Under the pieces are notes generated by a model. That model searched no databases, was not told where the DNA came from, and saw only the letters and a list, made by a program, of their open reading frames with translations. Made by a program: the position numbers and the translations under genes. Shown one piece after another: positions 1-32,815 of a stretch of 35,495 bases of DNA. The stretch is taken from positions 1-35,495 of the IMG/VR virus record IMGVR_UViG_3300017721_001134; one strand, 5' to 3'. Numbering within the stretch: the stretch's first letter is position 1; each line of letters begins with the position of its first letter. The stretch is from a virus. Taxonomy: Duplodnaviria; Caudoviricetes.

Positions 1-254
1 ACCATCACTTCTGTTTTGGGATCTTTCATTTGTCTTGCTTGATATTCGCCCAACATCATCTGTACCAGTTTGGAATTGGCAAAAGTTTCGCTTTGGGCAC
101 ACAAATTTTCTAAATGTGTGCGAGGTTGGATGCCGTTTGCTTTGGCATCATCACGGATCATTTTTTCAAAGTCTAATAACTTGTCCTTAGGTGTTTGTTT
201 CGGCTGTTTGGCTTTGTCCATGGAGTCGAATAAATTTGATAAGAAACTAGTCAT
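1..254 (-). CDS. hypothetical protein, truncated at window edge (MTSFLSNLFDSMDKAKQPK...)
   Basis: Not in ORF track. Read manually: ATG at 254, open to position 1, TAAATA 5 nt upstream (260-265). Confidence 0.75.
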   Translation of the reverse strand, partial: MTSFLSNLFDSMDKAKQPKQTPKDKLLDFEKMIRDDAKANGIQPRTHLENLCAQSETFANSKLVQMMLGEYQARQMKDPKTEVM

Positions 255-262
255 GTAGGTAT

Positions 263-478
263 TTATTCTGCGAGGACTTCTGTTCCGCCTGGGTTGACGG
301 TGAGTGTGTTGGCAGTGAAAGGCACTTTTCCGGTGTTTTTAACAACGATTCTTTTGACTGGCAGAGTCGTATCAGGAGTCAACAGTGTGTGCTTCCAAGG
401 CAATGTTTGATCTAGGAATAATTCATTATTCAAATACAGTTGTAAACTGGCTGGACATGAACCATGTATTTGAATCAT
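263..478 (-). CDS. hypothetical protein
   Basis: 71 aa; ATGA overlap with the upstream gene; fills the gap in a tiled minus-strand run. Confidence 0.6.
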   Translation of the reverse strand: MIQIHGSCPASLQLYLNNELFLDQTLPWKHTLLTPDTTLPVKRIVVKNTGKVPFTANTLTVNPGGTEVLAE

Positions 479-720
479 CGCTTGAGTAGTGGCCCACCAA
501 ACAGTGATGTGCCTTTCATATCAAGGGCATTGTCTGTGGGTTTTTGTTTTTTGGCTTTTGGTGGTCTAGGTGCTTTGGTTCCTGACTTACCAGGCGATCC
601 TGTGAATGATTTTTTCTTTCTGTCTTTGCCTATTGCTATGTGTGGACTGACCACAGTGGCAATATTTCCTGATGCAGTTGCACCTGCTGTGGCTTGTTCT
701 AATATTTCTTTGATACGCAT
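475..720 (-). CDS. small basic protein, probable head-internal protein
   Basis: 81 aa; N-terminus MRIKEILE (capsid-targeting-like); Lys/Pro-rich; TAAATA 5 nt upstream. Confidence 0.7.
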   Translation of the reverse strand: MRIKEILEQATAGATASGNIATVVSPHIAIGKDRKKKSFTGSPGKSGTKAPRPPKAKKQKPTDNALDMKGTSLFGGPLLKR

Positions 721-724
721 TATA

Positions 725-1513
725 CTATTTACTTTCCTTATTACCCATGATTAGGTCGAATTGCTTATAGTATTCTGGCAACGATTCTTTCATTTGGAAA
801 TTAAACACACTACGATCTATAAATTGCAACAGAGGTATATAACCAGTGACGTGCTGTTCAGTTTGTATGTTGTTGTCAGTGGATTGTGTATTCTTTCTTA
901 TGATCAAATTGGCATCGTTATCTGTTTCTGCTATCATTGAAACAGGATCAATCTGGTGCTTGTCATCTGTGTTATTAAGAATATAGTTTTCTTGTGTTAT
1001 GTCTTTGTCTTCAAATCCTTCTAACAACAATTTGTTTAACCCCTTGACATTTTTCAAAGGAGTTTGATTATCTAACATCACATATCCGCTACGCAGAGTT
1101 AATAATATTTGACATGGTTGTTCACCAAATATAAAATTTTTATCATTTTTCCATAATGTGTTTTTCAACCATCCTGCATCAGTATGATGCAACGAGTCAA
1201 CATGATATTGATACGGGTGTCCATTCACAAGAACTGCATACAATAACATGGCACTGCCTTCACCTTCTTTTGTGAAAACTGTTTTTGTGTTAACATCTCC
1301 TTGTGTTGCTATTTCGTCTCGTGATCGAGGCACAATTCTAAAAGTGTATTTGTATGTGCCATCTTCCTCATGTGTGATAGGCTTTGTCAAAATTAAACAA
1401 TCATGATGATGCCAGTAATATTCATCTATTAAGACATCGTTGCAATACAGTCTTATATCAGAGTAGCACAAACTTTCATTGGTATACAACATGAATTGAA
1501 CTTGATGTGCCAT
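725..1513 (-). CDS. hypothetical protein
   Basis: 262-aa ORF; TAATTA 5 nt upstream. Confidence 0.75.
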   Translation of the reverse strand: MAHQVQFMLYTNESLCYSDIRLYCNDVLIDEYYWHHHDCLILTKPITHEEDGTYKYTFRIVPRSRDEIATQGDVNTKTVFTKEGEGSAMLLYAVLVNGHPYQYHVDSLHHTDAGWLKNTLWKNDKNFIFGEQPCQILLTLRSGYVMLDNQTPLKNVKGLNKLLLEGFEDKDITQENYILNNTDDKHQIDPVSMIAETDNDANLIIRKNTQSTDNNIQTEQHVTGYIPLLQFIDRSVFNFQMKESLPEYYKQFDLIMGNKESK

Positions 1514-1521
1514 GTTGTTAA

Positions 1522-1842
1522 TTATTTTTTCTTTTTTCTGCCTCTACGCATATTGAGTTGCCAACGAGCCATGCGTCCTTTTTCTCCGCCTGCTTTGGCA
1601 TACTTTTGTAATTGTGCCATAGTGGCACCTTTGGGGATTCCTACTCTTTTTGATATACCTTTGCGTCCAGGCTTTTTGCCATCAGCAAAATTATCTTTAA
1701 ACATTACCTTATTGCCTTCTCCTCTACGAGGATCTTTGCTGATTGATTGATAATAAATTTTGCCATCCTTGCGTACTTTTTTAAGACCTAAAGGTTTTGC
1801 AGTGTGTGGCATTGGCTTGCCTATAAGTTCCATTAACTTCAT
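1522..1842 (-). CDS. small basic protein, probable head-internal protein
   Basis: 106 aa, K/R-rich, N-terminus MKLMELIG, ATGA-coupled to the upstream gene. Confidence 0.75.
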   Translation of the reverse strand: MKLMELIGKPMPHTAKPLGLKKVRKDGKIYYQSISKDPRRGEGNKVMFKDNFADGKKPGRKGISKRVGIPKGATMAQLQKYAKAGGEKGRMARWQLNMRRGRKKKK

Positions 1843-2278: not shown

Positions 2279-2924
2279 CTATGTATTTAATTAATTGTTC
2301 GGCCCATTGTTTGTGTCCTTCTGCAGATGGATGTTCATCTTGATTACTCAACTGTAGGTTACAATACTGGCAAAATTCGTAATGACTGGTAGCAGGGTTG
2401 AATATCATCCTGTGATCTAGTGCATTAAACAATGTGTGATGATCTGGATATTTTATGTTTATTTGTGATATCAATCCAAAATACATCACATATGGAATAT
2501 CATTAATTTTTAGGTAGTTCTGTGTGTCCAACATCTGTGTAAGTTGTAGCAAAGAGTGATCTTGTTCAACATCCCATCCTTGTTGTGCTGACACAAACTT
2601 GGGTTGTTCATGTGTGCTCCATGTACGCCACGTGGTTGAATATCCCTGCATTGGCTTGTATCCATCATCAGTAGGATAATCTCTTCGTCCAGGAGATGAC
2701 CATTGTATCACAGCAAATGTATCTTTTTTGCGTTCTGGATTTTGTTCAAAGAAAAGTTTAGTTGTGTCACATATTCTTCTGTTGCCTCTACCCCCACGGG
2801 CAAAATTGTATAAGGTAGCCCCATAGTGATCCGCTATTTCTTTACCTACCCATGTTTTACATTCTTTACCCCACTTTTTACGGGGGCCGTTGAAAGAACA
2901 TCCATTGACAAAAAGGTTTCGCAT
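2256..2924 (-). CDS. SGNH/GDSL hydrolase-like protein
   Basis: N-terminal GCSF (block I-like), NFARGGRGN (block II-like), C-terminal DEHPSAEGH (DxHP block V-like). Confidence 0.65.
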   Translation of the reverse strand: MRNLFVNGCSFNGPRKKWGKECKTWVGKEIADHYGATLYNFARGGRGNRRICDTTKLFFEQNPERKKDTFAVIQWSSPGRRDYPTDDGYKPMQGYSTTWRTWSTHEQPKFVSAQQGWDVEQDHSLLQLTQMLDTQNYLKINDIPYVMYFGLISQINIKYPDHHTLFNALDHRMIFNPATSHYEFCQYCNLQLSNQDEHPSAEGHKQWAEQLIKYIDEITRVH

Positions 2925-2929
2925 CGTTA

Positions 2930-2945
2930 TATTTAAAAGTAAATA
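2930..2945. promoter_or_regulatory. back-to-back divergent TAAATA late-type promoters
   Basis: TATTTA 2930-2935 (minus-strand TAAATA, 5 nt from ATG 2924) and TAAATA 2940-2945 (8 nt from ATG 2954) in a 29-bp gap. Confidence 0.7.
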
Positions 2946-2953
2946 AAGTTACT

Positions 2954-4132
2954 ATGGCAGTAAAAGAAAAAGTAGAGTTTGCAAAAATTGTAGTAAAAGA
3001 TCAAGCATTCAAAGTGAACAAAACTTATCAAATGTCACTGAGTGGTAAAAACTCTATGACCAAAGATCCAGCATACAATGCCGCAAATCCTAGACATTTT
3101 ATTCCAATGATGGACGAAGACAGATATGGCGAACGTTCTGATGCATTTGACAAGATTATTAGTGCCACACATAAACATTTTTGGGATCCAAATGATACAA
3201 AATACATTGATTACTCTACTCCATTTGATTCTGAAAACAATCACATATGCGATCCCAGAGTGTTTTGCATGGAATTGCGTATTCCTAGCATCGCAGACAA
3301 ACTGGACGACAAACAAAAAATTAAACTCAGTAATGAAAGTTTTAGATGGGTGCTGTCACAGATACTGCATGGAGAACAAGGAGCATTAAGTTTAAGTGCT
3401 AGTCTTTGCCATGTGTTAAAAGATCCAGGAGCACAGGAATATGCGGCCAATCAAACCAGAGAAGAAGCAAGACATGTTCTTGGCTTTACAAAATACATAG
3501 AAGCACGTTGGGGTAAACCATACAGAGTTGGACCAACACTTGGAAGAGTGCTGAACAGCATTGTATCATCTGATCAAGTGTACAAAAAAATTGTTGGAAT
3601 GCAGATGCTAATTGAAGGATTGGCTATGGGTGCGTTTGCAATGGCTCATGAAGATACAAATGATCCTTTGTTAAAAACACTTTTAAAATACACAATGAGT
3701 GATGAAGCATTTCATCATAAGTTTGGAAAAATTTGGGCAGACAGAACCATTCCAAAACTATCTGAGTCAGAACATCATAAAGTAGAAGATTGGTCAGAAT
3801 CACTGTTCACTAACTTATTGTTTAATCTGGTCAATCCATGGGAAAAGAAAGAAATATATGAAAGTGTAGGTTTGGATCATAAATGGGTGGCACAAGAGTT
3901 TATAGCAGGATTAGACAGAGATGAAGTTGCTAAAACTGAAATGAGACAACAAAATAATATATTCCGCGTGTTAGTAAAAACATTATTGAAAGCACACATT
4001 ATAACTGACAGAACAAAGTCAACCTATGCTGAGTATGTTGATATGGAAGAACTGCACCAAGAAGATGATGAAGTAGCAGGCACTGACATAGCAAACAAAG
4101 GCATAAAGATATTACAGAAAATAAACACATGA
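2954..4132 (+). CDS. ferritin-like diiron-carboxylate protein (AurF-like oxygenase/desaturase superfamily)
   Basis: Diiron ligand pattern HGEQGA...EEARH...IEGLA...DEAFHH (E, ExxH, E, ExxH). Confidence 0.8.
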   Translation: MAVKEKVEFAKIVVKDQAFKVNKTYQMSLSGKNSMTKDPAYNAANPRHFIPMMDEDRYGERSDAFDKIISATHKHFWDPNDTKYIDYSTPFDSENNHICDPRVFCMELRIPSIADKLDDKQKIKLSNESFRWVLSQILHGEQGALSLSASLCHVLKDPGAQEYAANQTREEARHVLGFTKYIEARWGKPYRVGPTLGRVLNSIVSSDQVYKKIVGMQMLIEGLAMGAFAMAHEDTNDPLLKTLLKYTMSDEAFHHKFGKIWADRTIPKLSESEHHKVEDWSESLFTNLLFNLVNPWEKKEIYESVGLDHKWVAQEFIAGLDRDEVAKTEMRQQNNIFRVLVKTLLKAHIITDRTKSTYAEYVDMEELHQEDDEVAGTDIANKGIKILQKINT

Positions 4133-4226
4133 TCAAACCTGTACGCATTGGTGGCATGATGGTTACAAGCACATATAAAAATGCCCCGATACACAGGATA
4201 CTAGCACTAGAAAAAGGAAACAAAAA

Positions 4227-5438
4227 ATGGACACAACATTCTCAAAAGAAGACCTCGACTTCCAACAAGAAGTAAGATCATTTATCAAAGACAACTATCC
4301 ACAAGAGTTGCAAGATTCTATTGCAGAAAAGAAAAAATTAGGTCAAGAGCCAAACAAAAAAGAACTGATGGCTTGGCATAAAATATTAGGTGCTCACAAA
4401 GGATGGTCAGCTCCAGGATGGCCAACACAGTATGGTGGAGCAGGATTTACTGCCACACAGAAATACATCTTTGAACAAGAAATGGCTCGGGCAGAATGTC
4501 AATTTGTAATGCCGTTTGGCCCTGTAATGTGTGCCCCTGTAATTTACACCTTTGGTACACAAGAACAAAAAGATAGATTCCTTCCTGGCATTCTTTCAGG
4601 AGAAGACTTTTGGTGTCAAGGATATTCAGAACCTGGAGCAGGATCAGATCTTGCAAGTTTGAAGACCACAGCAGACCTTTCGGAAGATGGCACACACTAT
4701 ATTGTTAACGGACAAAAGACTTGGACTACATTGGCACAACATGCCGATTGGATTTTCTGTTTGGTACGCACAGACAAACATGCTGACAAACCTCAAAAGG
4801 GTATTTCATTTTTGCTTATTGATATGAAGACGCCGGGTATTGAAGTGCGTCCTATCTATTTGATGGATGGCACCCACGAAGTAAACGAAACATGGTTTGA
4901 AAATGTCAAAGTGCCTGTTGAGAATAGAATAGGTGAAGAAAACATGGGTTGGAACTATGCTAAGTTTTTACTTGCAAATGAAAGATCGGGTATAGCAGGA
5001 GTGGCAAGATCACAAAAAGCAGTTCAACGAATCAAAGAGATTGCCGCATATGAAAAAAGTTATGGTGAACCGTTAATACAAGATCCTGCTTTTGCTAGGA
5101 AGATTGCTGAAGTAGAACTTGAATTGAAAGCACTTGAATATACAGAACTTAGATCGTTGTCCAAAGAGGCGGCCGGAAAAGGCCCTGGTGCTGAATCTTC
5201 ACTGTTAAAAATTAAAGGTACAGATATACAACAGGCATGCACTGAACTGGCCATGGAAGCAGTGGGATATTATGCCAATCCATGGATACAAGAAAGATCA
5301 GGATCTAATTTCAGTGTTGGAGCAGATCACACTATTGACAGATCAGGGCAATATTTCAACTTTAGAAAAGCATCAATATATGGTGGATCTAATGAAATAC
5401 AACGGAATATTATCGCTAAAATGATATTGGGTCTCTAG
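4227..5438 (+). CDS. acyl-CoA dehydrogenase (PimC/FadE large-subunit type)
   Basis: WCQGYSEPGAGSDLASLKT, NGQKTWTT, GISFLLIDM, LANER, SIYGGSNEIQRNII motifs; AAGGA SD upstream. Confidence 0.93.
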   Translation: MDTTFSKEDLDFQQEVRSFIKDNYPQELQDSIAEKKKLGQEPNKKELMAWHKILGAHKGWSAPGWPTQYGGAGFTATQKYIFEQEMARAECQFVMPFGPVMCAPVIYTFGTQEQKDRFLPGILSGEDFWCQGYSEPGAGSDLASLKTTADLSEDGTHYIVNGQKTWTTLAQHADWIFCLVRTDKHADKPQKGISFLLIDMKTPGIEVRPIYLMDGTHEVNETWFENVKVPVENRIGEENMGWNYAKFLLANERSGIAGVARSQKAVQRIKEIAAYEKSYGEPLIQDPAFARKIAEVELELKALEYTELRSLSKEAAGKGPGAESSLLKIKGTDIQQACTELAMEAVGYYANPWIQERSGSNFSVGADHTIDRSGQYFNFRKASIYGGSNEIQRNIIAKMILGL

Positions 5439-5466
5439 TTGACATTTTACCAAAATATAGTATAAT
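5439..5466 (+). promoter_or_regulatory. sigma70 consensus promoter
   Basis: TTGACA-N16-TATAAT; ATG 6 nt after the -10 box. Confidence 0.8.
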
Positions 5467-5907: not shown

Positions 5908-5908
5908 A

Positions 5909-7778: not shown

Positions 7779-7815
7779 ATGTTTATTTATTACTATCGCT
7801 ATGCTTGAAGATAGT

Positions 7816-9327: not shown

Positions 9328-9847
9328 ATATGTCCTTCAATTGTTCCAACGTGGCATCTGCTCTGCCGTCTTTGTGTTTGATAGCAGTACCACCGGCTGC
9401 CATCCAATTTTTTATATTTACACCAAAATCATCGATGAGCACATTAGGAGTGCCATCTGATTGTTTGGCATATATGCCTTTGTTTGCTGTGGGGGACATT
9501 ATAATTGTGTCTACAGGCTGTATGGATAGGTTTGCTTGTACCCATGCTCTCTTCTGTTTTTCTGCTCTGGGGTCTCCTGACAGTGCTTTAGACAGTACAA
9601 CAAATTCTCCTACAATGTTTTGTATACCTGATAACAGTTTGTTGGCATCTGGTAGCACACCCAAGTTGGGCCAAAAGTCATCTGTTTGAGCAATCTGTTT
9701 TAGTGTTCTTTGCAGTGTGTTTTTGTCTGCTTGATTCCATTTGGCAACACCTGCCATTTTGTTGAATGGAGTAAAGAAGTCTGCTAGTACACCGTCAAGG
9801 TCTACATATAGGATAGGTTTAGTGCTGTCGATTTCAAACAACAACAT
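9317..9847 (-). CDS. 5'(3')-deoxyribonucleotidase, NT5C-like HAD family
   Basis: YVDLDGVLADF (DxD motif I), K..W, LIDD (motif IV), W..AGG..I.H. Confidence 0.85.
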   Translation of the reverse strand: MLLFEIDSTKPILYVDLDGVLADFFTPFNKMAGVAKWNQADKNTLQRTLKQIAQTDDFWPNLGVLPDANKLLSGIQNIVGEFVVLSKALSGDPRAEKQKRAWVQANLSIQPVDTIIMSPTANKGIYAKQSDGTPNVLIDDFGVNIKNWMAAGGTAIKHKDGRADATLEQLKDIYEN

Positions 9848-10515
9848 TATGCTAGTTTTAATTTCTTCATCATTTTTTTAAGTGTGCCTGGCTTAACATC
9901 TTTGGTGGTGTTTTGTTTTGTGATAATTCCAACACCTGCTGTTTCTTTTATGCCTAGTCCCAGTCTCACAGCATGATACATATCATCAACAAGTCCTGAA
10001 TCACCTTTAACAATCTGTGCAAATGCTCCAGCATCACCTTTGGCAGCCGCTTCGCGTGCCTTTGATGCCGATGCTCCGGTGGCGCCATCTGAATCAGGAT
10101 CTCTGTCACCTGCTGATACAACTTTTATTTCGTCAAATTTATATTCATCGCCATTGTATTTTTGTAATAGGTCATTAAATGAACTCACTCTGTCAGAGCC
10201 TGCTACCATTGTGACTGCGTTGTGTCCACGTTGTTCTAGATATTGCATCACTTGTATGATTGTTCTTACACCTTCATCCTGCACAATCTCACTGGTGTGA
10301 TTGCCAAATCCTCTTTTCATAAAACTTATTTTTGTGTCGTAGTCTAACGGATTCTTTTTCTTATCTGTGGTGTGTGATACAAAAATGTAATAGGGTAGTC
10401 CTATTGATGCCACCTTGTCTAGCAGTTTGCCGTGACCTATTGTGGGCGGATTAAACCGACCAAATGTGAATACAGCAGGATTATTGTCCTTTTCTAGGAT
10501 TTCTAGTAATCTCAT
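9847..10515 (-). CDS. cytidylyltransferase-family (HIGH-type) nucleotidyltransferase
   Basis: FTFGRFNPPTIGHGKL, VAGSDR, SAGDRDPD, SASKAR motifs; ATG 10515 gives MRLLEILE. Confidence 0.85.
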   Translation of the reverse strand: MRLLEILEKDNNPAVFTFGRFNPPTIGHGKLLDKVASIGLPYYIFVSHTTDKKKNPLDYDTKISFMKRGFGNHTSEIVQDEGVRTIIQVMQYLEQRGHNAVTMVAGSDRVSSFNDLLQKYNGDEYKFDEIKVVSAGDRDPDSDGATGASASKAREAAAKGDAGAFAQIVKGDSGLVDDMYHAVRLGLGIKETAGVGIITKQNTTKDVKPGTLKKMMKKLKLA

Positions 10516-10762
10516 CACTCATCATTTCTTTGTACATTTCAACAGCAATCATCTTCTTTACGTCTGGACTGATTACTTCATATGGAATGTTATTTGTTTC
10601 GCTGAATTTCTTGCAGGCATGATCGACCAATTCCATGACTCTGCCATGATCGTTTGGATTTTTACGCATATAATAAAATGATGGCACATACATTCTTCTG
10701 TACATGTCTTCGTCATCGAAAATAGACTGTGTAATGGCTAAACCTAATGATTCATCGTGCAT
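10481..10762 (-). CDS. hypothetical protein
   Basis: 93 aa; TAAATA 5 nt upstream. Confidence 0.7.
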   Translation of the reverse strand: MHDESLGLAITQSIFDDEDMYRRMYVPSFYYMRKNPNDHGRVMELVDHACKKFSETNNIPYEVISPDVKKMIAVEMYKEMMSDEITRNPRKGQ

Positions 10763-10773
10763 ACAGATATTTA

Positions 10774-11202
10774 TTAGAATAATTTTTCAATCAACCATTC
10801 GTATACAGGAGCAGTGAATGTGAATCTATACTCACCGTTGTAGCCTAATTCTTTGATTTTTTCCAGTACAGGTGCTTTTGGTGAAGGATGATCTGGGTAA
10901 AATTTGGCCTCAGGATTCAATATCTGGTCCAAATCAACGTCATCCATCATTATTGAATCGATCAAAATGTAGGAATCCTTTGTTGTGACATCTTCTTCTT
11001 GCACAACATTGGCAAATGTTTTGTTAGAAACTACTAATCTGAATTCATGCTGGCCATCTTCTAGTTCGATATCGCTAGTAAAATCTATGTCTTTGCCTGA
11101 ATCGTCTGAAAATATTTGATTGTCACCGATAAAAATAGAAACAGTTAAAGGATGATCGTGCCAAACATGCTTGGCTTTAACGCCTATTTTTATCATATAC
11201 AA
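10774..11202 (-). CDS. hypothetical protein (beta-rich)
   Basis: 142-aa ORF in a tiled run; exact start uncertain (11202 or 11196). Confidence 0.7.
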   Translation of the reverse strand: MYMIKIGVKAKHVWHDHPLTVSIFIGDNQIFSDDSGKDIDFTSDIELEDGQHEFRLVVSNKTFANVVQEEDVTTKDSYILIDSIMMDDVDLDQILNPEAKFYPDHPSPKAPVLEKIKELGYNGEYRFTFTAPVYEWLIEKLF

Positions 11203-11371
11203 ATTCCATGCCGTGCAAGTTGCCTACAAACACATCAGGTTTAAGTAATTTTAATTCTATTCTGATGTCTCCAGGCTTTACTACTGTAACAATTTTATTT
11301 TGTGATTCTGTGACTATACCAGCAGTCACATACTTGTCTTTGTCTGTGCAATATAAAGATATTTCTTCCAT
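11177..11371 (-). CDS. hypothetical protein (likely early gene)
   Basis: 64 aa; consensus sigma70 promoter with ATG 6 nt after the -10 box. Confidence 0.75.
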   Translation of the reverse strand: MEEISLYCTDKDKYVTAGIVTESQNKIVTVVKPGDIRIELKLLKPDVFVGNLHGMEFVYDKNRR

Positions 11372-11377
11372 ACCATT

Positions 11378-11405
11378 ATTATATAGGATTAAAGATAAAT
11401 GTCAA
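11378..11405 (-). promoter_or_regulatory. sigma70 consensus promoter
   Basis: TTGACA-N16-TATAAT-AATGGT-ATG, same layout as 5439-5475. Confidence 0.8.
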
Positions 11406-11406
11406 A

Positions 11407-11757
11407 TTATTTGTTGAAACCAACAGTTTCACGTTTTATATCATTGTGATTGAATTCTGCCCAGTACAATTCAAATGCTACACCATCTTTTACTCCTTCG
11501 AATTGATGATATACTCCTGGTTTGACTTGACAAAAATCGCCTGCTTTAAGCACAGTTTCGTCTACAAGGTCATAATCATTTTGCCAAACTCTTATGATCA
11601 TTTCTCCTGACTCAACAAAGAAACCATTCCATTTAAATTCATGCTTGTGTTTAGAACAAACGCCACCTTTTTTGTATTCTATTCGATGAAACTCATGCAC
11701 ACCATTGGCATGCACTAATTCTGTGTTCCCCCAAATTTTTCCTGCTTTGTTTCCCAT
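11407..11757 (-). CDS. cupin-domain protein (mannose-6-phosphate isomerase type II-like)
   Basis: K.WG start, SKHKH...F.V.SG, V.PG.YHQF cupin motifs. Confidence 0.8.
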   Translation of the reverse strand: MGNKAGKIWGNTELVHANGVHEFHRIEYKKGGVCSKHKHEFKWNGFFVESGEMIIRVWQNDYDLVDETVLKAGDFCQVKPGVYHQFEGVKDGVAFELYWAEFNHNDIKRETVGFNK

Positions 11758-11777
11758 GCAAGTAATTATGTGGTAAT

Positions 11778-12128
11778 TTAAAAGTTGAGTAGTATTTTGG
11801 TTACTGATCCAGTTTCAACAGTTGTCGATGCTCTTACCCACACAAAGTTACCAGTAAAATTGATATATTGTGTTGCTACCACACTAGAACTATCACCAAC
11901 TGACGTTCCATCTATATCGAACCAGTCTGTAGCATTGTCTGGATCAGTGGCAAGTGATCCTTGCATTTTTATTGTGCCAACAAAATCTGAAGAGCAAATG
12001 TATGCCACTGTATGTAATCCGTCAGCATTCCCATAATATCCATCTGCTTTGACGGCTTCTGATACTGTGGCCGCAGTTGAGTCAGCGGCAGCTATTTGTG
12101 ATTGTACAATGATCGATGTGCTTGGCAT
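11778..12128 (-). CDS. probable virion structural protein
   Basis: Beta-rich, DGYYG..DGLHTV, WFDI, FTGNFVWVRA; late motif 5 nt upstream. Confidence 0.6.
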   Translation of the reverse strand: MPSTSIIVQSQIAAADSTAATVSEAVKADGYYGNADGLHTVAYICSSDFVGTIKMQGSLATDPDNATDWFDIDGTSVGDSSSVVATQYINFTGNFVWVRASTTVETGSVTKILLNF

Positions 12129-12136
12129 ACAGTTAT

Positions 12137-12418
12137 TTATTGAGAGATTTCAGGGAACAGTCTTTCGATAGTGATTTCGTCCATTCCATTGATCTCATGT
12201 ATTTTTTGTGGAGTAACCAAATATTCACGTAGATTTTCAGGATCACAACCTTTAATAACAATTTTTTGTCCTTTGATTTCACATGCTTCAAACAATAAAT
12301 CTTTTGCGAGATCTAATGGTTGTGCTCCTAGTCCATGCACACCTATTGTGGCATTTAGCATAGCATTCTTTTTTAGATAGTTGTGCTCTATCATGTATTT
12401 CACAATGTTTGTTTTCAT
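12137..12418 (-). CDS. hypothetical protein
   Basis: 93 aa; AGGAGA SD. Confidence 0.75.
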   Translation of the reverse strand: MKTNIVKYMIEHNYLKKNAMLNATIGVHGLGAQPLDLAKDLLFEACEIKGQKIVIKGCDPENLREYLVTPQKIHEINGMDEITIERLFPEISQ

Positions 12419-12425
12419 GTATCTC

Positions 12426-14633
12426 CTAGTTTATTGTAAACTCGTCTGAGTCTTTGTTATAATCAACTGAAAGTTTTTTGTTTGTGATACTATCAAAAAG
12501 TATCTTCTTACTCAAAGGCAGTTTTATTCTTGTGCTTATTACTCTTTGCAGTGGTCTTGCACCCATTTTAGAATCGAACCCTTCTTCTTGCAGTTGTTGT
12601 TTTGCTTGTTTGGACAGTTTAACAGTAATATTTTTATCTGTCATCTGATGATTTAATTGTGTAATAAATTTATCTACAATACTGGCCATTACCTTTTTTT
12701 CTAATGGCTTAAATCTTAACACAGCATCTAACCTATTTCTAAATTCTGGTGCAAAATAATTTTTAATATCAATCTCTCCGTCATGCACATTATTGTCAGT
12801 GAATCCTAATGTGTTGGCCTGCATATCCTGGGCACCCAAGTTTGAAGTCATCATGATGATTGAGTTATTGAGTCTCACTTTCTTACCATTAGATGCTGTA
12901 ATCACAGCATCATCCATTGCCTGTAGCAATATTGTCATTACATCTTTGTGTGCTTTTTCGACTTCATCAAACAGTATGACTGCGTTAGGATGTTTTTCCA
13001 ATTCATTAACAAGTTGTCCTGCATTGCCATCATCATATCCTACATAACCTGGAGGCGATCCTATTAATTTGGCAACAGAATGTTTTTCTTGATATTCACT
13101 CATGTCAAATTTTACCAGTGTCATGTGTAGTCCATCAGCAAGTTGCCTTGCAGTTTCTGTTTTTCCACAACCAGTTGGTCCAACAGCAAGGAAAGATCCT
13201 ATAGGTTTGTTTTCCTGCTTTAGGCCTGCTTGAGCAACAATCACAGTATCGACCAATTTGTCTATCACAGTGTCTTGTCCGAACACTTGTGTTTTGACTG
13301 TTTCGCCTAAATTTTCTATGCTGGCTGTTTTTGTTTGTTCAATTGACTCAAACTTTACACCTGATATTTGTGCAACTTGTTTTTGAACATCTGTGATGTC
13401 TACATCTTTAAATGCATCAAATATTTTTGCTTTGGAACAAGCACGGTCTAACACATCAATTGATTTGTCAGGTAGTTGCCTGTCTGTAATATGTTTGACT
13501 GATAGATCCACTGTGGCATCTATTGCGTCTGATGTAATTTCCACTTTGTGATAATCTTCGAATTGTTCTTTGAGACCCATCATTATTTGTTTTGCATGTT
13601 CAACACTCGGCTCTTCAATATTCACTTTGCCAAATCTACGCATCAATGCTCTGTCTTTTTCAAAATGCTTTCTGTATTCTTCCCAGGTGGTTGAAGCAAT
13701 CACTTTCAAATCTCCTCTTGCAAGTGCTGGTTTCAACAAGTTTGCAAGATCAACACCTCCTTGCCCGCCTGCTCCCGCACCATGCATCATGTGTGCTTCG
13801 TCGATGAACATAATTGCTTTGTCATTCTTTTCTAATACTGATAATAATATTTTTAAACGTTCTTCAAAGTCTCCTCTGTATTTTGATCCAGCAATTAAAG
13901 ATCCTACATCAACAGAAAATATAGTATGATCTTTGATCACATCTGGCACTTTGTTTTCAACTATCATGTGTGCTAATCCTTCTGCAATAGCAGTTTTTCC
14001 TACTCCTGGATCTCCTATCATGATAACATTGTTCTTTGTTTTTCTTCCTAACACTAGCACAATTTCATCTACCACGTCTTGTCGACCAATACAATGAAAT
14101 GTTTTATTTTGTTTTGCTTGTTCATTCAAATCAACAGTGTAGTTTTTAAGTATCTTGGCCGCTTGTTTCTGATTAACCTGTGTTTCATCAGGCACCTCAG
14201 TACCAACTTCTGTCATGTGGTCGACAACAGCCTTTTTAGTAAGTCCATTTTTTAACATGAAAAACAATGCATGTGAATTTTTTTCACCAAATAGGCTCAA
14301 TATAAGTTGAAAGCAATCCACATATTCTTTACCTGAAAATATTGCAGTGGTGAATGCTCTGTTTACTGTACGCTCAGTAGATTGTGTTCTTTTTGGATAT
14401 ACTTCCTCTTTGCTTTTTATTTCATTCAACCCATTTTCGATATGATCCTGTAGATCATTCATCATTTGATCAACTTTTATATCCTTATTACTGTGTAACA
14501 ATTCATCTAGATCCGGTTGTATCAATAGAACAAAAAGTAAATGTTCTAGTGTAATGTATTCGTGCGAATGAGATCTAGCAATTTTAACTGCTTCGTCAAA
14601 AATGTGTTTCAATTTATCGTCTGCTTGAATCAT
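12426..14633 (-). CDS. clpA: ATP-dependent Clp protease ATP-binding subunit ClpA
   Basis: Clp N-domain (HEYITLEHLL), AAA1 GDPGVGKT/FIDEAH, AAA2 GPTGCGKT/FDEVEKAH, LGF ClpP-docking loop, GARPL; no ClpB coiled-coil middle domain. Confidence 0.92.
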   Translation of the reverse strand: MIQADDKLKHIFDEAVKIARSHSHEYITLEHLLFVLLIQPDLDELLHSNKDIKVDQMMNDLQDHIENGLNEIKSKEEVYPKRTQSTERTVNRAFTTAIFSGKEYVDCFQLILSLFGEKNSHALFFMLKNGLTKKAVVDHMTEVGTEVPDETQVNQKQAAKILKNYTVDLNEQAKQNKTFHCIGRQDVVDEIVLVLGRKTKNNVIMIGDPGVGKTAIAEGLAHMIVENKVPDVIKDHTIFSVDVGSLIAGSKYRGDFEERLKILLSVLEKNDKAIMFIDEAHMMHGAGAGGQGGVDLANLLKPALARGDLKVIASTTWEEYRKHFEKDRALMRRFGKVNIEEPSVEHAKQIMMGLKEQFEDYHKVEITSDAIDATVDLSVKHITDRQLPDKSIDVLDRACSKAKIFDAFKDVDITDVQKQVAQISGVKFESIEQTKTASIENLGETVKTQVFGQDTVIDKLVDTVIVAQAGLKQENKPIGSFLAVGPTGCGKTETARQLADGLHMTLVKFDMSEYQEKHSVAKLIGSPPGYVGYDDGNAGQLVNELEKHPNAVILFDEVEKAHKDVMTILLQAMDDAVITASNGKKVRLNNSIIMMTSNLGAQDMQANTLGFTDNNVHDGEIDIKNYFAPEFRNRLDAVLRFKPLEKKVMASIVDKFITQLNHQMTDKNITVKLSKQAKQQLQEEGFDSKMGARPLQRVISTRIKLPLSKKILFDSITNKKLSVDYNKDSDEFTIN

Positions 14634-15904: not shown

Positions 15905-15910
15905 GCTCAT

Positions 15911-15938
15911 AGTATACTATATAATGATGATCTGTCAA
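15911..15938 (-). promoter_or_regulatory. sigma70 promoter of the dnaJ-def-clpA run
   Basis: TTGACA-N16-TATACT, 6 nt before ATG 15904. Confidence 0.75.
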
Positions 15939-15953
15939 TGTTGCAAGTGGGGA

Positions 15954-16301: not shown

Positions 16302-16837
16302 TATAGATATTTAGTTGGGACGATGTTATATGCTACTATATACCTGCGTACACCAAGTGCAGACGGCTCTACATAGTGTCTCAGGTAACTTGGAACTAGA
16401 ATCATTTCACCATTCTTAGGCACATGTTTATAATCACAAGTTGGAAACACTAGTGCCCCAGATCCTTCAGGACAATCTATAAAAGCAACGCCACTCCATA
16501 GGGCAGGATAATGATCGTGTTCTTTTGCATATTCATCGTCTGTGTATCTTGCACCCCATAAGGCGCCTATAGAAAATTGTCTTTTGTGATCTTTTTTCAA
16601 CAGGGTGTAACTAGTGGCCAGTTCACATGCTTTGTACCCTATGTTTGCAAATGATGGATGTAAAGTCATATCCCATTTGGTCATGTGACATTTTAAATTA
16701 GTTTTTTTACTGTGAGGATCGACTTCGTTGTTAATAATGTCAATAATTTTTTGTTTTTGTAATTCGTAGTGCGGAATGTTTGACACAACTACATCAATGT
16801 CGTGATTGGTTTTGATGCCAATTGTGTCAAACTTCAT
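16301..16837 (-). CDS. putative 2OG-Fe(II) oxygenase
   Basis: W...HDH...WSG...PS.L.H.V...R...AYN double-stranded beta-helix pattern. Confidence 0.75.
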   Translation of the reverse strand: MKFDTIGIKTNHDIDVVVSNIPHYELQKQKIIDIINNEVDPHSKKTNLKCHMTKWDMTLHPSFANIGYKACELATSYTLLKKDHKRQFSIGALWGARYTDDEYAKEHDHYPALWSGVAFIDCPEGSGALVFPTCDYKHVPKNGEMILVPSYLRHYVEPSALGVRRYIVAYNIVPTKYL

Positions 16838-16845
16838 TTTGGGGG

Positions 16846-17007: not shown

Positions 17008-17008
17008 A

Positions 17009-17287: not shown

Positions 17288-17326
17288 AATTGTCTCCTAT
17301 CAGTTGTACTGTTACTTATCTAAAAA

Positions 17327-18695: not shown

Positions 18696-19405
18696 TACAA
18701 GTCCTCCGCTTTGATTATGATGTTCTTGTCTTCTTTTGATATTTTGAAAAGATCATCTACTTTAACAATGTGCCATCCACCACCCAACCAATTGTTGAGA
18801 TATTGTGTTTGTGCTGTAGATGATTCGTCTATTCTGTATACGCCATTTTTTGTAGGTACATTTACTGCTTCTAAAACAAATTTATGTTTGTTGTAAATTT
18901 TACTCATAGTTAAATTTTTACCTGATCGTCTCACTGTGACTTTTGATTCTTTAAACAGTGTATTAATATCTTCATCTGTTGTGTCGTCAGTTAAAAATTT
19001 GTATTGCTCTGCACTGGTAGGAACAAGACTCAGTAAGTTTGCTTCGTTCAAACTATAAAATTCTTCATTTTTGTAAAATCTAAATTTCCATGGCAATATA
19101 CCTGTCACGTTTTCCATGTCACGCACTAGTTCCATAATATTATTTGGAAGGCTATCGTCTCTTTCAAGTTCTACAAAAATATTGTACATTTTCTGTGTGT
19201 TTTTGGCCGCTGAAAAATCTGCATCTAACACATAGTCATGGCCAGACTCAACAAAACTAACAAGGTCAGCCGCTACATCTTTGTTGTCTGATTGAAACTG
19301 TATTACAGATACATCTTCGTCTCTGCCAAGTTTTGCTTGAAAGGCATCAATGACCACTTCTGGACTGACATGGTTGTACATTTCTAAATTCTTGATTGAC
19401 TTCAT
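18695..19405 (-). CDS. hypothetical phage protein
   Basis: 236 aa; TAATG coupling at both ends. Confidence 0.8.
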   Translation of the reverse strand: MKSIKNLEMYNHVSPEVVIDAFQAKLGRDEDVSVIQFQSDNKDVAADLVSFVESGHDYVLDADFSAAKNTQKMYNIFVELERDDSLPNNIMELVRDMENVTGILPWKFRFYKNEEFYSLNEANLLSLVPTSAEQYKFLTDDTTDEDINTLFKESKVTVRRSGKNLTMSKIYNKHKFVLEAVNVPTKNGVYRIDESSTAQTQYLNNWLGGGWHIVKVDDLFKISKEDKNIIIKAEDL

Positions 19406-19887
19406 TACAATTCTACTTGGTCTTGTGGTGATTGAAAGTCATCAACTTGTGAACCTGACACAGTTTGTGTCATCTTAGTTTCTGCATTGAAGTCTTCTAT
19501 CACTGTGTTTGGAATAGTGATTTTTACTAACCATACAGGCATTTCGTCTAGTTTACCTTTTCTTGTGCCAGGTCTATAATCACTGTAACTTTTAATCTTT
19601 CTTGGAATCAATTTAATATCTTTTTTGTATGATACTTGCCCGCCCACATTGGTAATACGTTTGCCTGCATCTGGATCTGGCATTTCTTTCATGTCCCACA
19701 TAAAAGTTGCAGTGGTGTCATATTTTGTTACCACAGGTCCTTCAACAAGTTCACCTTTACTCCAGTTTTGGTATGCGTATATGTTGACATCATCTAAAAC
19801 CTTTTCTAAATTAACAAGTGAACTAATCACATTGTCTGAAGCATAAATGTTTTTGATATTGCGTAAGATGTCTAGTGTATCTATCAT
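19405..19887 (-). CDS. hypothetical phage protein
   Basis: Start moved to ATG 19887 (MIDTLD), 5 nt after TAAATA; MPDP.AG motif. Confidence 0.8.
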   Translation of the reverse strand: MIDTLDILRNIKNIYASDNVISSLVNLEKVLDDVNIYAYQNWSKGELVEGPVVTKYDTTATFMWDMKEMPDPDAGKRITNVGGQVSYKKDIKLIPRKIKSYSDYRPGTRKGKLDEMPVWLVKITIPNTVIEDFNAETKMTQTVSGSQVDDFQSPQDQVEL

Positions 19888-19944
19888 AGTGATATTTATC
19901 AAATGTATCTTACAGCCGTAAACAAGCGAATAACTACTGAAACA

Positions 19945-23628: not shown

Positions 23629-23657
23629 ATTATACTTGATTTGTTTTTAATTTGCAA
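23629..23657 (-). promoter_or_regulatory. sigma70 promoter
   Basis: TTGCAA-N17-TATAAT, 6 nt before ATG 23622. Confidence 0.7.
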
Positions 23658-24298: not shown

Positions 24299-24823
24299 CT
24301 AACGTAAAAACTCTTTGTAACTTAAATTGTATTTAATAGGGTCTATATGGTGGGTACCTATCAAATAGAGAACCAAACTGCTCACACTTGAACCTCTGCC
24401 AATGCCAGTAACTATGTTGTTCTGTTTACACACATCCATCATATAAATCAAATATTTGAGTATGTGCATCATGTTCCTTTGTGTGTATTCATCTAATTCA
24501 ATTGCCAGTCTATCAATGTATGCATCATCAATCATTTTGCGTTGTGACATTTGTCCTGTCAAATACAGTTCAATATCCATAGTTGCATATTGTTCAGGCA
24601 TTATCCATGTTCCAGACAGCAATTCATGATATTGATCCACAGGCATATCTATCAACATAGGTTGTGCTAATGTGTCTACTTCAAAATGTTTTGCATGTGT
24701 GCTGTGTAGACTGGCTTCTGTTGAATCATCTAACACCAACTGATCAACAGGGTCACCACTGTACAGTAATTCAATCACTTCACGTGTAGAGAAAGAACAA
24801 TTACCAAATGCATCAGTAATCAT
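24299..24823 (-). CDS. DNA polymerase III alpha (DnaE) fragment
   Basis: RL..EL...GIGRGSSVSSLVLYLIG...IDPIKYNL...EFL matches the DnaE palm N-part; ends before the PDxDxD motif. Confidence 0.8.
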   Translation of the reverse strand: MITDAFGNCSFSTREVIELLYSGDPVDQLVLDDSTEASLHSTHAKHFEVDTLAQPMLIDMPVDQYHELLSGTWIMPEQYATMDIELYLTGQMSQRKMIDDAYIDRLAIELDEYTQRNMMHILKYLIYMMDVCKQNNIVTGIGRGSSVSSLVLYLIGTHHIDPIKYNLSYKEFLR

Positions 24824-25612: not shown

Positions 25613-25625
25613 ATTAGATATTTAA

Positions 25626-26213: not shown

Positions 26214-26224
26214 ACTGTTATTTA

Positions 26225-28785: not shown

Positions 28786-28803
28786 TTGTAGTATTTAAGT
28801 AAA

Positions 28804-28878: not shown

Positions 28879-28894
28879 GTATCTTAATGCAAAA

Positions 28895-30400: not shown

Positions 30401-30431
30401 TAGTGTGTTCTCCTTTGGTGTTGACGAAATG

Positions 30432-30444
30432 TATTTAATAAATA
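30432..30444. promoter_or_regulatory. back-to-back divergent TAAATA late-type promoters
   Basis: TATTTA 30432-30437 and TAAATA 30439-30444 form the palindrome TATTTAATAAATA. Confidence 0.65.
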
Positions 30445-30465
30445 TTTTTATAAACCTAATGTAAG

Positions 30466-30747
30466 ATGTTCATCAAACAAACCACACAGATACACCTACA
30501 TCAACGAGAAAGCAAACTGGGTAAAGTACACAATTTCAAACGCAGACGTTCTGCATATCATTTCAAATGTGATGCTTGTGGCACAGAGTTTGTGCGTGAC
30601 AAGAGTAAAGTCACTCCTGCACGAGCGTCAAACAATTTTCACCATGTGTGTTCCAAGTGTGATGTAAAAAAGTATGCTCAAAAAGTGGGTGTAGAAATGC
30701 GTAAGATTTGGAACATTGATGCAAGTTCCACAGAAATAAAACTTTAA
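30466..30747 (+). CDS. small basic zinc-ribbon protein
   Basis: CDAC...HVCSKC pairs, 93 aa. Confidence 0.75.
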   Translation: MFIKQTTQIHLHQRESKLGKVHNFKRRRSAYHFKCDACGTEFVRDKSKVTPARASNNFHHVCSKCDVKKYAQKVGVEMRKIWNIDASSTEIKL

Positions 30748-31835
30748 TTGCTGTAAACGTCCAAGTTCCAAGCACCATTGCCAAACACACAAGTTGCAAG
30801 ACTTCTTCTTGGCTCAACAGAATCTCCTGCACCAAAAGGTGTTGTGAACGGTTTCCATGCATAGGTAGATAACACATCTCCATCATCTGGATTTCTCACT
30901 TGAGATATTGTCACAGTTGTGTTTGCAACAGATCCATACACAGAGTCACCACCTGCAATAATAAAATGCATGATCTGTCCTTCTGTGCCAGCGGCAAGTG
31001 TGTAATCTTCTTCACCAGCGGCTAATGAATGTATAGTTTTTGATAATGACAAAGCAGTGGTTGATGTAGCCAAATCATCTTGTGGTGTGAATACTGTTGC
31101 TCCTGATACATCTATATTTCCTGTAACACTTACTCCAGTGTGTATTACTCTGAATCTTTCTGATAAAGAAGCTCCATCATGTGTTTTAACAAAAACTGTG
31201 TTTGATGTGCCTGATGTTCCATCCATCTGCAGTTCTGCTCTTACATTTCCGTTGGAATTTTGAAAACTTAGACCAGGTGTGTTTGCGTCAGCAGTTCTCT
31301 GAAGTGTTACTATCGACGAGGCAGATTTGATGTGTAGTTGTGTGTCCGGTGAACCAACAGAACCTATACCAACCTGTCCACCTGCTTTCAACAAGATGTC
31401 ACCTGTGCCGCCAGGTTCGATTGTAATATTTGTGTTGCCTGTAGTGACTATATCTCCTGTGAGTGTGATACCCGCGGTTGTAATAGCAGGAAATGTAAAT
31501 GCCGCATCTGAACCAAAAGACAGTTGTCCATCTATTCTTACATCATCTACAATGCTCAACCCGGTTGAATCGTCCGAACGTATAATATTATTGAATATTG
31601 TTGGAGCATTCATTACAATAGTTCCGTCACCTCTGGGATCTAATGTTAGTTCTCCGTCTGTGATAAATGTTGTGATGTTAGCAGTTTCAAGTGTGGTTGA
31701 TGTGGATGAATCTCCTGATCCAACCAGTTGATACAACTCATCAAAATTGTCATTGATTTTTGACATGGCCGCACGTAAAGTATCGCCCGTTCCTGTGTTT
31801 ATTCCAGTGCCTGTGTTGATTGATTGCTTAGCCAT
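30744..31835 (-). CDS. tail fibre/baseplate protein, paralog of 28895..30400
   Basis: MAKQSINTGTGINTGTGDTLRAAMSKINDNFDELY; GQVGIG...P...LHI fibre motif; G.EGQI C-terminal module. Confidence 0.75.
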   Translation of the reverse strand: MAKQSINTGTGINTGTGDTLRAAMSKINDNFDELYQLVGSGDSSTSTTLETANITTFITDGELTLDPRGDGTIVMNAPTIFNNIIRSDDSTGLSIVDDVRIDGQLSFGSDAAFTFPAITTAGITLTGDIVTTGNTNITIEPGGTGDILLKAGGQVGIGSVGSPDTQLHIKSASSIVTLQRTADANTPGLSFQNSNGNVRAELQMDGTSGTSNTVFVKTHDGASLSERFRVIHTGVSVTGNIDVSGATVFTPQDDLATSTTALSLSKTIHSLAAGEEDYTLAAGTEGQIMHFIIAGGDSVYGSVANTTVTISQVRNPDDGDVLSTYAWKPFTTPFGAGDSVEPRRSLATCVFGNGAWNLDVYSN

Positions 31836-31855
31836 ATATGCTATTTAACAAATGA

Positions 31856-32170
31856 TTAAGTTTCGATTGTAGGAACTTGCCCCATCATATACCACTCGCC
31901 ATCTACTGCTAGATACCATTCTTTACAGGCAAAACTATACTGGCTAATGGTCAAATCTTTTAATTCTTCTTTGTTTGTTTCACTATTCCAATATTCTAGG
32001 AAGGATTGTTCGAAAATAGGCTCTGTGCGTTCTAAAGCTAAGTTACAAAAGGATTCTTCCTGAAAACTTATTTCCTTGTTGTAGGTAGAAAAAGATCTGT
32101 CAGTTTCTTCAAACTGAACAGTCACAGTTACTAACCATACGGAAAATATTGATGTAGCAAGATCAAGCAT
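31856..32170 (-). CDS. hypothetical protein, possibly exported
   Basis: Hydrophobic N-terminus, two Cys, acidic. Confidence 0.65.
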   Translation of the reverse strand: MLDLATSIFSVWLVTVTVQFEETDRSFSTYNKEISFQEESFCNLALERTEPIFEQSFLEYWNSETNKEELKDLTISQYSFACKEWYLAVDGEWYMMGQVPTIET

Positions 32171-32489
32171 TCATGTTCACAGAGAATGATTCACCGCAAC
32201 CACAAGTCATTTTTGATTGAGGATTGTCAAATTTAAATTCTGCTTTAAATGGCGTCACCACCCAATCCAAAGTCATGCCTAAAATATACATTTCAAACAT
32301 ACGATCAACAAGCAGTACATCTTCTAGTAAAGCATCTGATTTTGTATAACCATCTTCATTTTCGAAGCTCCAGTCATATGTAAGTCCTGCACATCCGCCG
32401 CCATTTAGAGATAATCTCACATAGGAAGAATTATTTTCTTGTGCTAATGATTTAAGGTGTGCTATTCCCTTGTCTGTGATTGTAATCAT
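32163..32489 (-). CDS. A-type Fe-S cluster carrier (IscA/SufA/HesB family)
   Basis: GGGCAG and CGCGESF motifs. Confidence 0.93.
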   Translation of the reverse strand: MITITDKGIAHLKSLAQENNSSYVRLSLNGGGCAGLTYDWSFENEDGYTKSDALLEDVLLVDRMFEMYILGMTLDWVVTPFKAEFKFDNPQSKMTCGCGESFSVNMNA

Positions 32490-32497
32490 ATGTGTAT

Positions 32498-32815
32498 TTA
32501 CATGCCCATTAGTAATCTAGCATCATCGCTCATGAATGACATGTCCCATGGTGGATCAAATGTAAGTTGCATTCTTACAGGAGAGTATCCTGCATTGGCA
32601 ACTGCTTCTTGTACCCATGATGGCAGTTCTCCTGCAACTGGGCAATTAGGACTAGTCAGTGTCATAACAACATCAGCTGACTTGTCTTTATTAATTTGTA
32701 CATCATAAATTAATCCAAGTTCAAACACGTCAACAGGAATTTCTGGATCGTATACTTTGTGAAGTTGTTCAGTTAATTTAGGATATTCTTTTTCGTAATG
32801 TTCTCTATCTATCAT
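32498..32815 (-). CDS. sufT: DUF59/SufT Fe-S assembly protein
   Basis: V.DPEIPV...ELGLIY, MTLTSPNCP, FDPPW...MSDDAR motifs. Confidence 0.9.
   Translation of the reverse strand: MIDREHYEKEYPKLTEQLHKVYDPEIPVDVFELGLIYDVQINKDKSADVVMTLTSPNCPVAGELPSWVQEAVANAGYSPVRMQLTFDPPWDMSFMSDDARLLMGM

Follow-up and report, generated by a model that had tools for sequence, protein, structure and literature searches.

The DNA analysed here, called the window throughout, is one whole contig of 35,495 bases and 37% G+C from a virus of the Caudoviricetes (IMG/VR record IMGVR_UViG_3300017721_001134), in which the hexamer TAAATA, also the core of the phage T4 late promoter, ends five or six nucleotides (nt) ahead of the ATG of many genes. 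The window encodes virion and tail proteins (phrog_12928, phrog_13138 and gp9/10-like tail proteins), lysis proteins (a GH108 lysin and two spanins), ClpA, DnaJ, GroES, PhoH, a clamp-loader-like ATPase and a short PolIII-alpha, and also peptide deformylase, IscA, SodC and UvdE. By gene content and order it is a fragment of an aquatic, uncultured Rak2/PA5oct/Atu_ph07-like jumbo phage of group 2.2 (classification of PMC7824862). The markers of group 2.2, namely PhoH, phrog_12928, phrog_13138, DnaJ, ClpA, GroES and the short PolIII-alpha, are all present, and the gene order is that of PA5oct. A tblastn search with one virion protein matched 85 phage records, and the best 40 of these 85 were all PA5oct-like, 121Q/PBECO4-like, RaK2 or Sinorhizobium phage Phosso. 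A protein 91% identical to the window's phrog_12928 protein, the marker of the orthologue survey below, sits on a 291-kb contig, contigs of 291-303 kb are on record for the window's subclade, and a near-identical 50-kb contig (G001) has a completeness estimate of 15%; the whole genome is perhaps 300 kb.

TAAATA occurs 21 times in the window, 18 times on the minus and three times on the plus strand. Fourteen copies lie 5-6 nt before an ATG, one lies 8 nt and four lie 16-43 nt before one, and two (9420, minus; 18405, plus) fall within genes away from any start; sites are named here by the A of the ATG, and distances count the nucleotides between the end of the box and the ATG. For the 14 other hexamers of equal composition, counts run from 11 to 49 on the minus and from 17 to 46 on the plus strand. 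An earlier note on this DNA had listed 16 close box-to-ATG sites, and every one of them is present, all on the minus strand: ten with TAAATA at 5 nt, two with the variant TAATTA at 5 nt, and four with TAAATA at 6 nt.

The ten TAAATA boxes at 5 nt precede ATG 254 (box 260..265, its TAA being the stop codon of the upstream open reading frame, ORF), 720 (726..731, overlapping the end of the upstream gene), 2278 (2284..2289, within the 3' end of the upstream gene and ahead of a 40-codon ORF), 2924 (2930..2935), 7778 (7784..7789), 10762 (10768..10773), 12128 (12134..12139; a virion protein, phrog_13657/14467, with short spacing in 21 of 25 orthologues), 19887 (19893..19898; the phrog_12928 marker), 26213 (26219..26224; 9 short and 51 long among 62 orthologues) and 32489 (32495..32500; IscA-like, the TAA again an upstream stop). 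The TAATTA variants stand at 1519..1524 before ATG 1513, with the TAA as upstream stop, and at 11763..11768 before ATG 11757 of a cupin gene, whose orthologues all (5/5) have TAATTA or TAACTA at 5 nt. Boxes at 6 nt are found at 16308..16313 (ATG 16301), 25619..25624 (ATG 25612), 28792..28797 (ATG 28785, an Ig-domain protein) and 31842..31847 (ATG 31835, a gp9/10-like tail protein). A plus-strand box at 2940..2945, back to back with the minus-strand box 2930..2935, ends 8 nt before ATG 2954 of an AurF-like gene, for which a 3-nt leader is predicted. With it, a late box at 5-8 nt opens 17 of 57 genes, and the spacer is exactly 5 nt in 12 of the 17.

The remaining boxes near starts are distant. 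Three on the minus strand have GGAG between box and ATG and would give leadered messages: 24330..24335, 43 nt before ATG 24286; 30432..30437, 31 nt before ATG 30400 of a gp9/10-like tail protein; and 33545..33550, 16 nt before ATG 33528. On the plus strand, 30439..30444, back to back with 30432..30437, lies 21 nt before ATG 30466 with no Shine-Dalgarno (SD)-like word, the exception that the earlier note had recorded. Its statement that GGAG fills the gap wherever the motif is distant holds for 30400, while at 17287 and 22023 the box is TAAGTA, and the GGAG credited to 33534 fits the second ATG, 33528. The sites 2954 and 24286, and the host-type promoters described below, had been missed. The boxes also occupy gaps between divergent genes: the 29 bp of 2925-2953 hold two boxes back to back, the 15 bp of 19888-19902 hold one, and a second back-to-back pair lies at 30432-30444 in the gap 30401-30465. 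For the radical SAM gene at 19903, on the plus strand, neither a promoter nor an SD site of its own is evident.

Comparison with shuffled sequence supports the spacing. TAAATA stands at 5-6 nt at 14 of the 57 starts curated by hand; when the 40 nt upstream of each start were shuffled 2000 times with dinucleotides kept, the count averaged 0.21 and never exceeded 3. A few starts on the curated list were later revised, none of them among the 14. Control hexamers show no spacing peak. Six of the 18 minus-strand boxes read ATAAATA. Across the 16 sites, positions -20 to -13 have no invariant base and, with positions further upstream judged by eye only, there is no conserved -35 element. Identification of the motif with the T4 late promoter, as first proposed, thus stands for the TAAATA core and fails for the full octamer, TATAAATA, of which the window has no copy.

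A second class of promoter has the same layout. Full sigma70-type promoters end 5-6 nt before the ATG in six of the 57 genes: TTGACA-16-TATAAT at 5439..5466 (+), 6 nt before ATG 5473; TTGACA-16-TATAAT at 11378..11405 (-), 6 nt before ATG 11371; TTGACA-16-TATACT at 15911..15938 (-), 6 nt before ATG 15904, the second ATG of DnaJ; TTGCAA-17-TATAAT at 23629..23657 (-), 6 nt before ATG 23622 of the clamp-loader-like ATPase; TTGTTC-17-TATAAT at 32821..32849 (-), 5 nt before ATG 32815 of an FeS assembly protein; and TTGACA-16-TACAAT at 34602..34629 (-), 5 nt before ATG 34596 of UvdE. In pooled phage DNA with short box spacing, full TTG-16/18-TANNNT promoters peak at 6 nt (14 of the 32 sites within 20 nt), and none stands at 5-7 nt in T4, Syn9 or CBB. 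The -10 hexamer usually ends six bases before the first transcribed base, +1 (PMC3160421), so that a peak one base further out than that of the late box is what the two promoter geometries lead one to expect. The clamp-loader gene has its -10 box 5-7 nt before the ATG in the eight closest orthologues and elsewhere is often SD-led. SD-like words are absent before all 74 orthologues of DnaJ (window 15095-15904), and in 36 of them a full sigma70 promoter lies 4-8 nt ahead of the ATG; DnaJ looks leaderless, from these upstream regions, across the whole clade, genomes with long box spacing included.

The 57 genes divide by start type into 17 with a late box at 5-8 nt, six with a sigma70 promoter at 5-6 nt, 17 with an SD-like word, 12 that abut the upstream gene without such a word, and five that fit no class. 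The earlier claim that the close-box sites have no SD is borne out: an SD-like word occurs at none of the 23 starts fused to a promoter, against 17 of the other 34 (Fisher p 2e-5). The accompanying claim, that most remaining genes are coupled through ATGA or TAATG, was overstated, since an exact -4 or -1 overlap is found in 9 of these 34 and abutment or overlap of any kind in 22. The SD-like genes include lysin, a spanin, ClpA, peptide deformylase and a tail protein, and the words recur in orthologues of lysin (20/21) and ClpA (48/63). Where the box is distant, a strict SD word lies between box and ATG at 216 of 360 long sites. The start codon five bases after the box is ATG in 94 of 97 cases (GTG 2, TTG 1), and a strong AUG preference is expected of leaderless messages (PMC8459731). 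The first 30 nt of fused genes fold less than internal sequence, with a mean of -0.9 kcal/mol over 33 genes against -2.5 (p 8e-6).

Orthologues of the marker gene, 19405-19887, show how the box behaves when its distance changes. Upstream DNA was taken from 166 loci, of which 16 were dropped (15 duplicates and one that was too short). Of the remaining 150, 149 have the box, at 5-9 nt in 43, at 17-33 nt in 104 and at 14 nt in one, and never at 10-13 or 15-16 nt; one further locus has a box at 0 nt and another at 32 nt. A box that stays constant while its gap alternates between room for an SD and no such room behaves like a promoter, and the empty middle range is expected from selection against short leaders (PMC8459731). 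Box sites other than the marker's follow the same division: 59 short and 33 long at 21 loci with a short-spaced marker, against 67 short (38 of them at exactly 5 nt) and 203 long at 78 loci with a long-spaced marker. The short layout is a genome-wide trait. Four changes of layout are needed on a tree of 154 marker proteins, and well-supported branches force at least two of them; this is a quick tree of 150 columns with long branches.

Counts over whole genomes and contigs vary widely. The ratio of short to long sites is 14/2 in the window, 14/3 in its roughly 91% identical relative G002, and 23/38 in the complete environmental relative G006. Cultured members of the clade run from XacN1 (13/55, terminal repeats counted twice) through PA5oct (4/48) and Atu_ph07 (4/68, from 400 of 490 kb) to CBB (0/50). 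Outside the clade we find 14/11 in HTVC008M, with 11 at exactly 5 nt, 1/28 in T4, 0/28 in Syn9, 0/18 in phiM12 and 0/4 in Cr30. XacN1 (AP018399) has 11 copies of TAAATA-N5-ATG against three at 11 nt, and full sigma70 promoters there peak at 6-7 nt (13 sites); its sequence marks it as a cultured clade member with a partial, predicted leaderless layout.

At all 12 sites that a script matched between the window and G002, the spacer has equal length, and four of the spacers differ in sequence. In G002 an additional box precedes the orthologue of gene 32170 by 5 nt; the box and spacer of window site 2278 open a different gene there. Between 254 and 2278 the small lysine-rich ORFs differ between the two contigs and the boxes stay in place. 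This suggests that genes may be swapped behind fixed units of box plus ATG. Five aligned database proteins (P0054, P0062, P0074, P0037 and P0081) carry N-terminal extensions that end in K-Y-x-T before a conserved Met. The TAAATA box has been translated by gene callers as coding sequence, and starts in the clade are consequently often mis-annotated; if the messages are leaderless, the box would supply a practical rule for start-codon calling, several database proteins having been extended upstream through it.

The sigma factor predicted to read such a box is encoded by relatives of the window. A gp55-like protein is found in the environmental records G006, G020, G022 and G028 and in PA5oct, CBB, Phosso, Atu_ph07 and XacN1; the sigma of the clade has its T4 match at 39.8-40.1 kb, the gene 55 region, with E 1.6e-6, and also matches phrog_234/12791. 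The gp55 search that the earlier note had proposed has hits in relatives, the complete G006 among them, and none on this contig. For CBB, the motif ATAAATA was predicted as a late promoter at 35 places before structural genes, and a gp55-like sigma is encoded (PMC5259590, Table S7). Orthologues of gp33 are reported in group 2 jumbo phages (PMC7824862), while the transcription section of the CBB paper reports that neither gp33 nor gp45 was found (PMC5259590). Of 80 viral loci that bear the sigma most have long spacing, and 33 have at least one short site.

The T4 system also allows the start of transcription to be predicted. In the T4 structure the A of the late box is at -12 (PMC7892883); the printed P23 sequence places TATAAATA at -13 to -6 and +1 at the sixth base after the box, a numbering deduced here from PMC7892883. 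With this geometry and a 5-nt spacer, +1 would fall on the A of the ATG. Leadered sites give an indirect sign of such a position: bases 5 and 6 after the box form a pyrimidine-purine step at 48% of 287 clade sites, at 44% of 201 sites from CBB, Atu_ph07, PA5oct and XacN1, and at 44% of 27 sites in T4 and again of 27 in Syn9, compared with about 20-35% at most other positions. A pyrimidine closes 92% of the 94 five-base spacers, so that the A of the ATG itself completes the step. Eight-base spacers have A at base 6 in 97% of 32 cases, which predicts a 3-base leader; this reading is ambiguous, base 6 being also position -3 of the ATG. No RNA data set was listed as carrying window 9600-19500; three metatranscriptome contig sets gave short cross-matches only and count neither way, as contigs cannot show 5' ends.

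We consider it probable that TAAATA fused to ATG acts as a late promoter yielding leaderless messages, and it is likely, from the promoter layouts, that late and early messages alike are leaderless. The box would be read by the phage's gp55-like sigma on host RNA polymerase; with its end 5-6 bases before the ATG, transcription would begin at the A or one base earlier, and the resulting messages would be translated without an SD site. Together with the six sigma70 promoters of matching layout, some 23 of 57 genes (about 40%) would be leaderless or nearly so, and downstream genes of operons would use SD sites or translational coupling. Promoter plus ATG would take the place of a leader of 20-30 nt, an arrangement that probably reflects a lineage-level accommodation to a streamlined host poor in SD sites and good at leaderless translation. 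The earlier note's proposal of late promoters with leaderless messages thus gains from the geometry, the two-peaked orthologue spacing and the start signature, and remains a prediction from sequence.

Several observations weigh against this proposal or parts of it. G006 lacks the signature at bases 5/6 (27% of 37 sites), and the pooled sites include many orthologues, so that p-values overstate their independence. The marker's closest relatives (68-91% identity) all have a 7-nt spacer, from which a leader of 1-3 nt is predicted, and in Caulobacter every added 5' base halves leaderless initiation (PMC8459731). Folding of the fused genes does not differ significantly from that of 84 SD-led genes (-1.6 kcal/mol; p 0.29). 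No gp55 gene lies on the 35-kb contig or on the near-identical G001 and G002, which are fragments; among 29 fragment records three matched gp55, all with long spacing and none with short. Short sites outnumber long ones in only one of the 80 sigma-bearing loci, from a query that favoured long-spaced lineages. The link to a host described below rests on two genes and a scan of 19 of 64 genome-collection parts, and full promoters at 6-7 nt occur in just 11 of 368 genes of the candidate host, a small peak and a weak leaderless signal. Finally, hosts of Cr30 (Caulobacter) and phiM12 are alphaproteobacteria that make leaderless messages, and the layout is absent from both phages, which weakens the host-accommodation part; host competence is therefore not sufficient.

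Other explanations of the box differ in how they fare. The thought that it reflects stop codons or AT-rich intergenic DNA draws on the four of 16 sites whose TAA is the upstream stop (three more overlap the end of the upstream gene, and nine are intergenic), and its chance is close to nil: 11 TAAATA sites survive exclusion of the stop-codon sites, the peak persisting as the earlier note had required, and we rejected this candidate on the shuffle test, the absence of a peak for control hexamers and the two-peaked orthologue spacing. TAAATA might alternatively be a translation signal, an AT-rich S1-type or Kozak-like enhancer on leadered or polycistronic messages rather than a promoter. Frequent A at -3 in 7- and 8-base spacers (64% and 97%) and the Kozak-like signals reported in Bacteroidetes (PMC6847099) could be so explained, but orthologues shift the same box to 17-33 nt with an SD between, the box precedes heads of divergent units that have no upstream message (2924, 2954, 19887), it is scarce in coding sequence of either strand, and the Bacteroidetes phage PTm1 has no clear excess at 5 nt (20, against 15 at 11 nt); we regard this as highly improbable. 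A nearer variant keeps the promoter and has transcription start 1-4 bases before the ATG, or has read-through and re-initiation dominate, so that strictly leaderless messages would be a minority. In pooled clade DNA, 127 of the 241 sites with spacers of 4-9 nt do have 6-9 nt, and seven of the 16 boxes touch the upstream gene; yet the modal spacer is 5 nt (94 sites), and even the loci with a long-spaced marker peak sharply at exactly 5, which leaves this variant unlikely, though less so than a translation signal.

The purpose that the earlier note had proposed, bypassing SD-led initiation so that the phage could suppress host translation or resist translation-targeting defences, fares poorly. 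As a takeover device, leaderless key messages would let the phage shut down SD-led translation of the host or survive damage to initiation by defence or starvation. Early and late promoters do switch together in the window's subclade, as the clamp-loader gene shows, and the layout is genome-wide. But 17 of 57 window genes keep SD-like sites, conserved in orthologues for lysin and ClpA, so that a shut-off of SD-led translation would block the phage's own lysis. The candidate host has an intact anti-SD in its 16S rRNA and few SD genes: counted by one method, SD-like words precede 12% of its 368 genes, 56% of those of T4 and 24-26% in this phage group. The 56 window proteins and 30 from flanks of close relatives, which cover a small part of the genome, include nothing recognisable as a ribonuclease toxin, an initiation factor or a ribosomal protein, so the search for translation-initiation genes came up empty in this DNA. 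The layout is probably not a shut-off device, and takeover as a whole we hold to be just as unlikely as short leaders. Somewhat less doubtful, though still improbable, is that several aquatic T4-like or jumbo lineages independently rewired early and late promoters onto start codons, with leaderless translation of the first gene in most messages sustaining synthesis under starvation or defence; if so, box-to-ATG spacing would tell from sequence what host a phage has and how it translates.

The clue to a host comes from the plus, or minority, strand, where the AurF-like di-iron protein gene stands next to an acyl-CoA dehydrogenase gene (2954-5438, +), apparently under a late promoter. The acyl-CoA dehydrogenase is 75% and the AurF-like gene 76% identical to single-cell genomes deposited as uncultured Pelagibacteraceae, at loci that are chromosomal; the next-best identities are 65% and 62%. 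The pair is likely a host-derived fatty-acid cassette, and we infer as candidate host a low-GC marine alphaproteobacterium. IscA gave no such clue, its best match being 40% and a search of the two candidate genomes not finding it. Scanning the candidate host for TANWNT in general yields no clear peak; one appears only with full -35/-10 promoters. Curli genes are described in Melnitz-like marine myophages of streamlined hosts (PMC9004378), and the data on the candidate host, this curli link and HTVC008M together point to streamlined, low-SD hosts.

Other features of the phage deserve mention. G001 extends the window with CsgG, curlin-repeat and FecR-like genes, a TctA transporter, a porin, ClpP and an Hc1 histone-like protein (L170 4402-7051; L169 7070-9158 and 15471-17579), which gives a group 2.2 jumbo phage a cluster of curli genes. 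The PolIII-alpha-like protein of 24299-24823 is minimal, at 174 residues, and its short form is kept in the clade (phrog_11127; Phosso too). A cluster at 32163-34596 combines IscA-like and SufT/MIP18-like proteins, a Cu/Zn superoxide dismutase and UvdE, functions of oxidative and UV stress, with fused promoters at three of the four genes. Seven proteins with minus-strand starts (720, 1842, 2159, 2278, 9327, 9847 and 10515), a nucleotidase and a cytidylyltransferase-like enzyme among them, share the N-terminal word M-[RKL]-[ILL]-x-E-[IFLV], for example MRLQEFINE, MKISEIILE or MRIKEILE. We take this word to resemble the T4 capsid-targeting sequence of internal proteins; by that analogy, the seven may be carried inside the head and delivered by injection.

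Textbooks present T4-type late transcription as producing leadered messages that are SD-led. If the proposal made here is true, abundant aquatic relatives run the same sigma system without a leader, and a layout that flips gene by gene and lineage by lineage would show, as a natural experiment, under which conditions leaderless initiation is of advantage; the thin support for a takeover function lowers the value of the finding. In the open full-text literature we found no description of leaderless gp55-type transcripts, the main texts for CBB, PA5oct, RaK2, Melnitz and phiKZ included; subscription maps of cyanophage transcription starts lay outside this scope. The main texts on CBB and PA5oct do not contain the word "leader", nor that on RaK2 the word "promoter", and in PMC9004378, PMC2704228 and PMC12801897 "leaderless" occurs only in reference lists. 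Differential RNA sequencing of phiKZ gave no leaderless phage transcript (PMC8244752). The layout of HTVC008M likewise has no description in the open full-text literature searched, and PMC12753301 does not cover this phage.

T4 late promoters consist of TATAAATA and are served by the gp55 sigma, gp33 and the gp45 clamp (PMC2988020, PMC7892883). The window resembles them in its TAAATA core, the lack of a conserved upstream element, the purine at the sixth base after the box and the gp55 homologue of its relatives; it differs in that the octamer's first two bases are not kept, and T4 late messages are leadered. CBB (Mimasvirus, Rak2-like) is a phage of the same clade as the window, with the box before virion genes, a gp55-like sigma of family phrog_12791 and a predicted box likewise reduced from the octamer (PMC5259590). 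Its box sites, however, are all long, and those of PA5oct and Atu_ph07 are overwhelmingly so. Among phages, the first leaderless case was lambda cI. Bacterial leaderless genes have been recognised by a TANNNT some 12 bp ahead of the start (PMC3160421) and studied in Caulobacter (PMC8459731); they share with the window a promoter box at a fixed short distance, the lack of an SD, the preference for AUG and the scarcity of intermediate leaders. Unlike these and lambda cI, the window's box would be a late promoter for a phage sigma, and the layout extends to about 40% of the genes of a lytic jumbo phage. A further comparison is HTVC008M, a Pelagibacter phage of the Kyanoviridae that encodes gp55 and has 11 of its TAAATA boxes separated from an ATG by exactly 5 nt, and that offers a cultured, non-pathogenic test system; it differs in belonging to another T4-like lineage, in sigma70-type promoters without a peak at 6 nt and in SD-like words at 46% of its genes. 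T4-type late boxes and leaderless messages are thus each known, and it is their fusion, as predicted here, that the literature searched does not describe.

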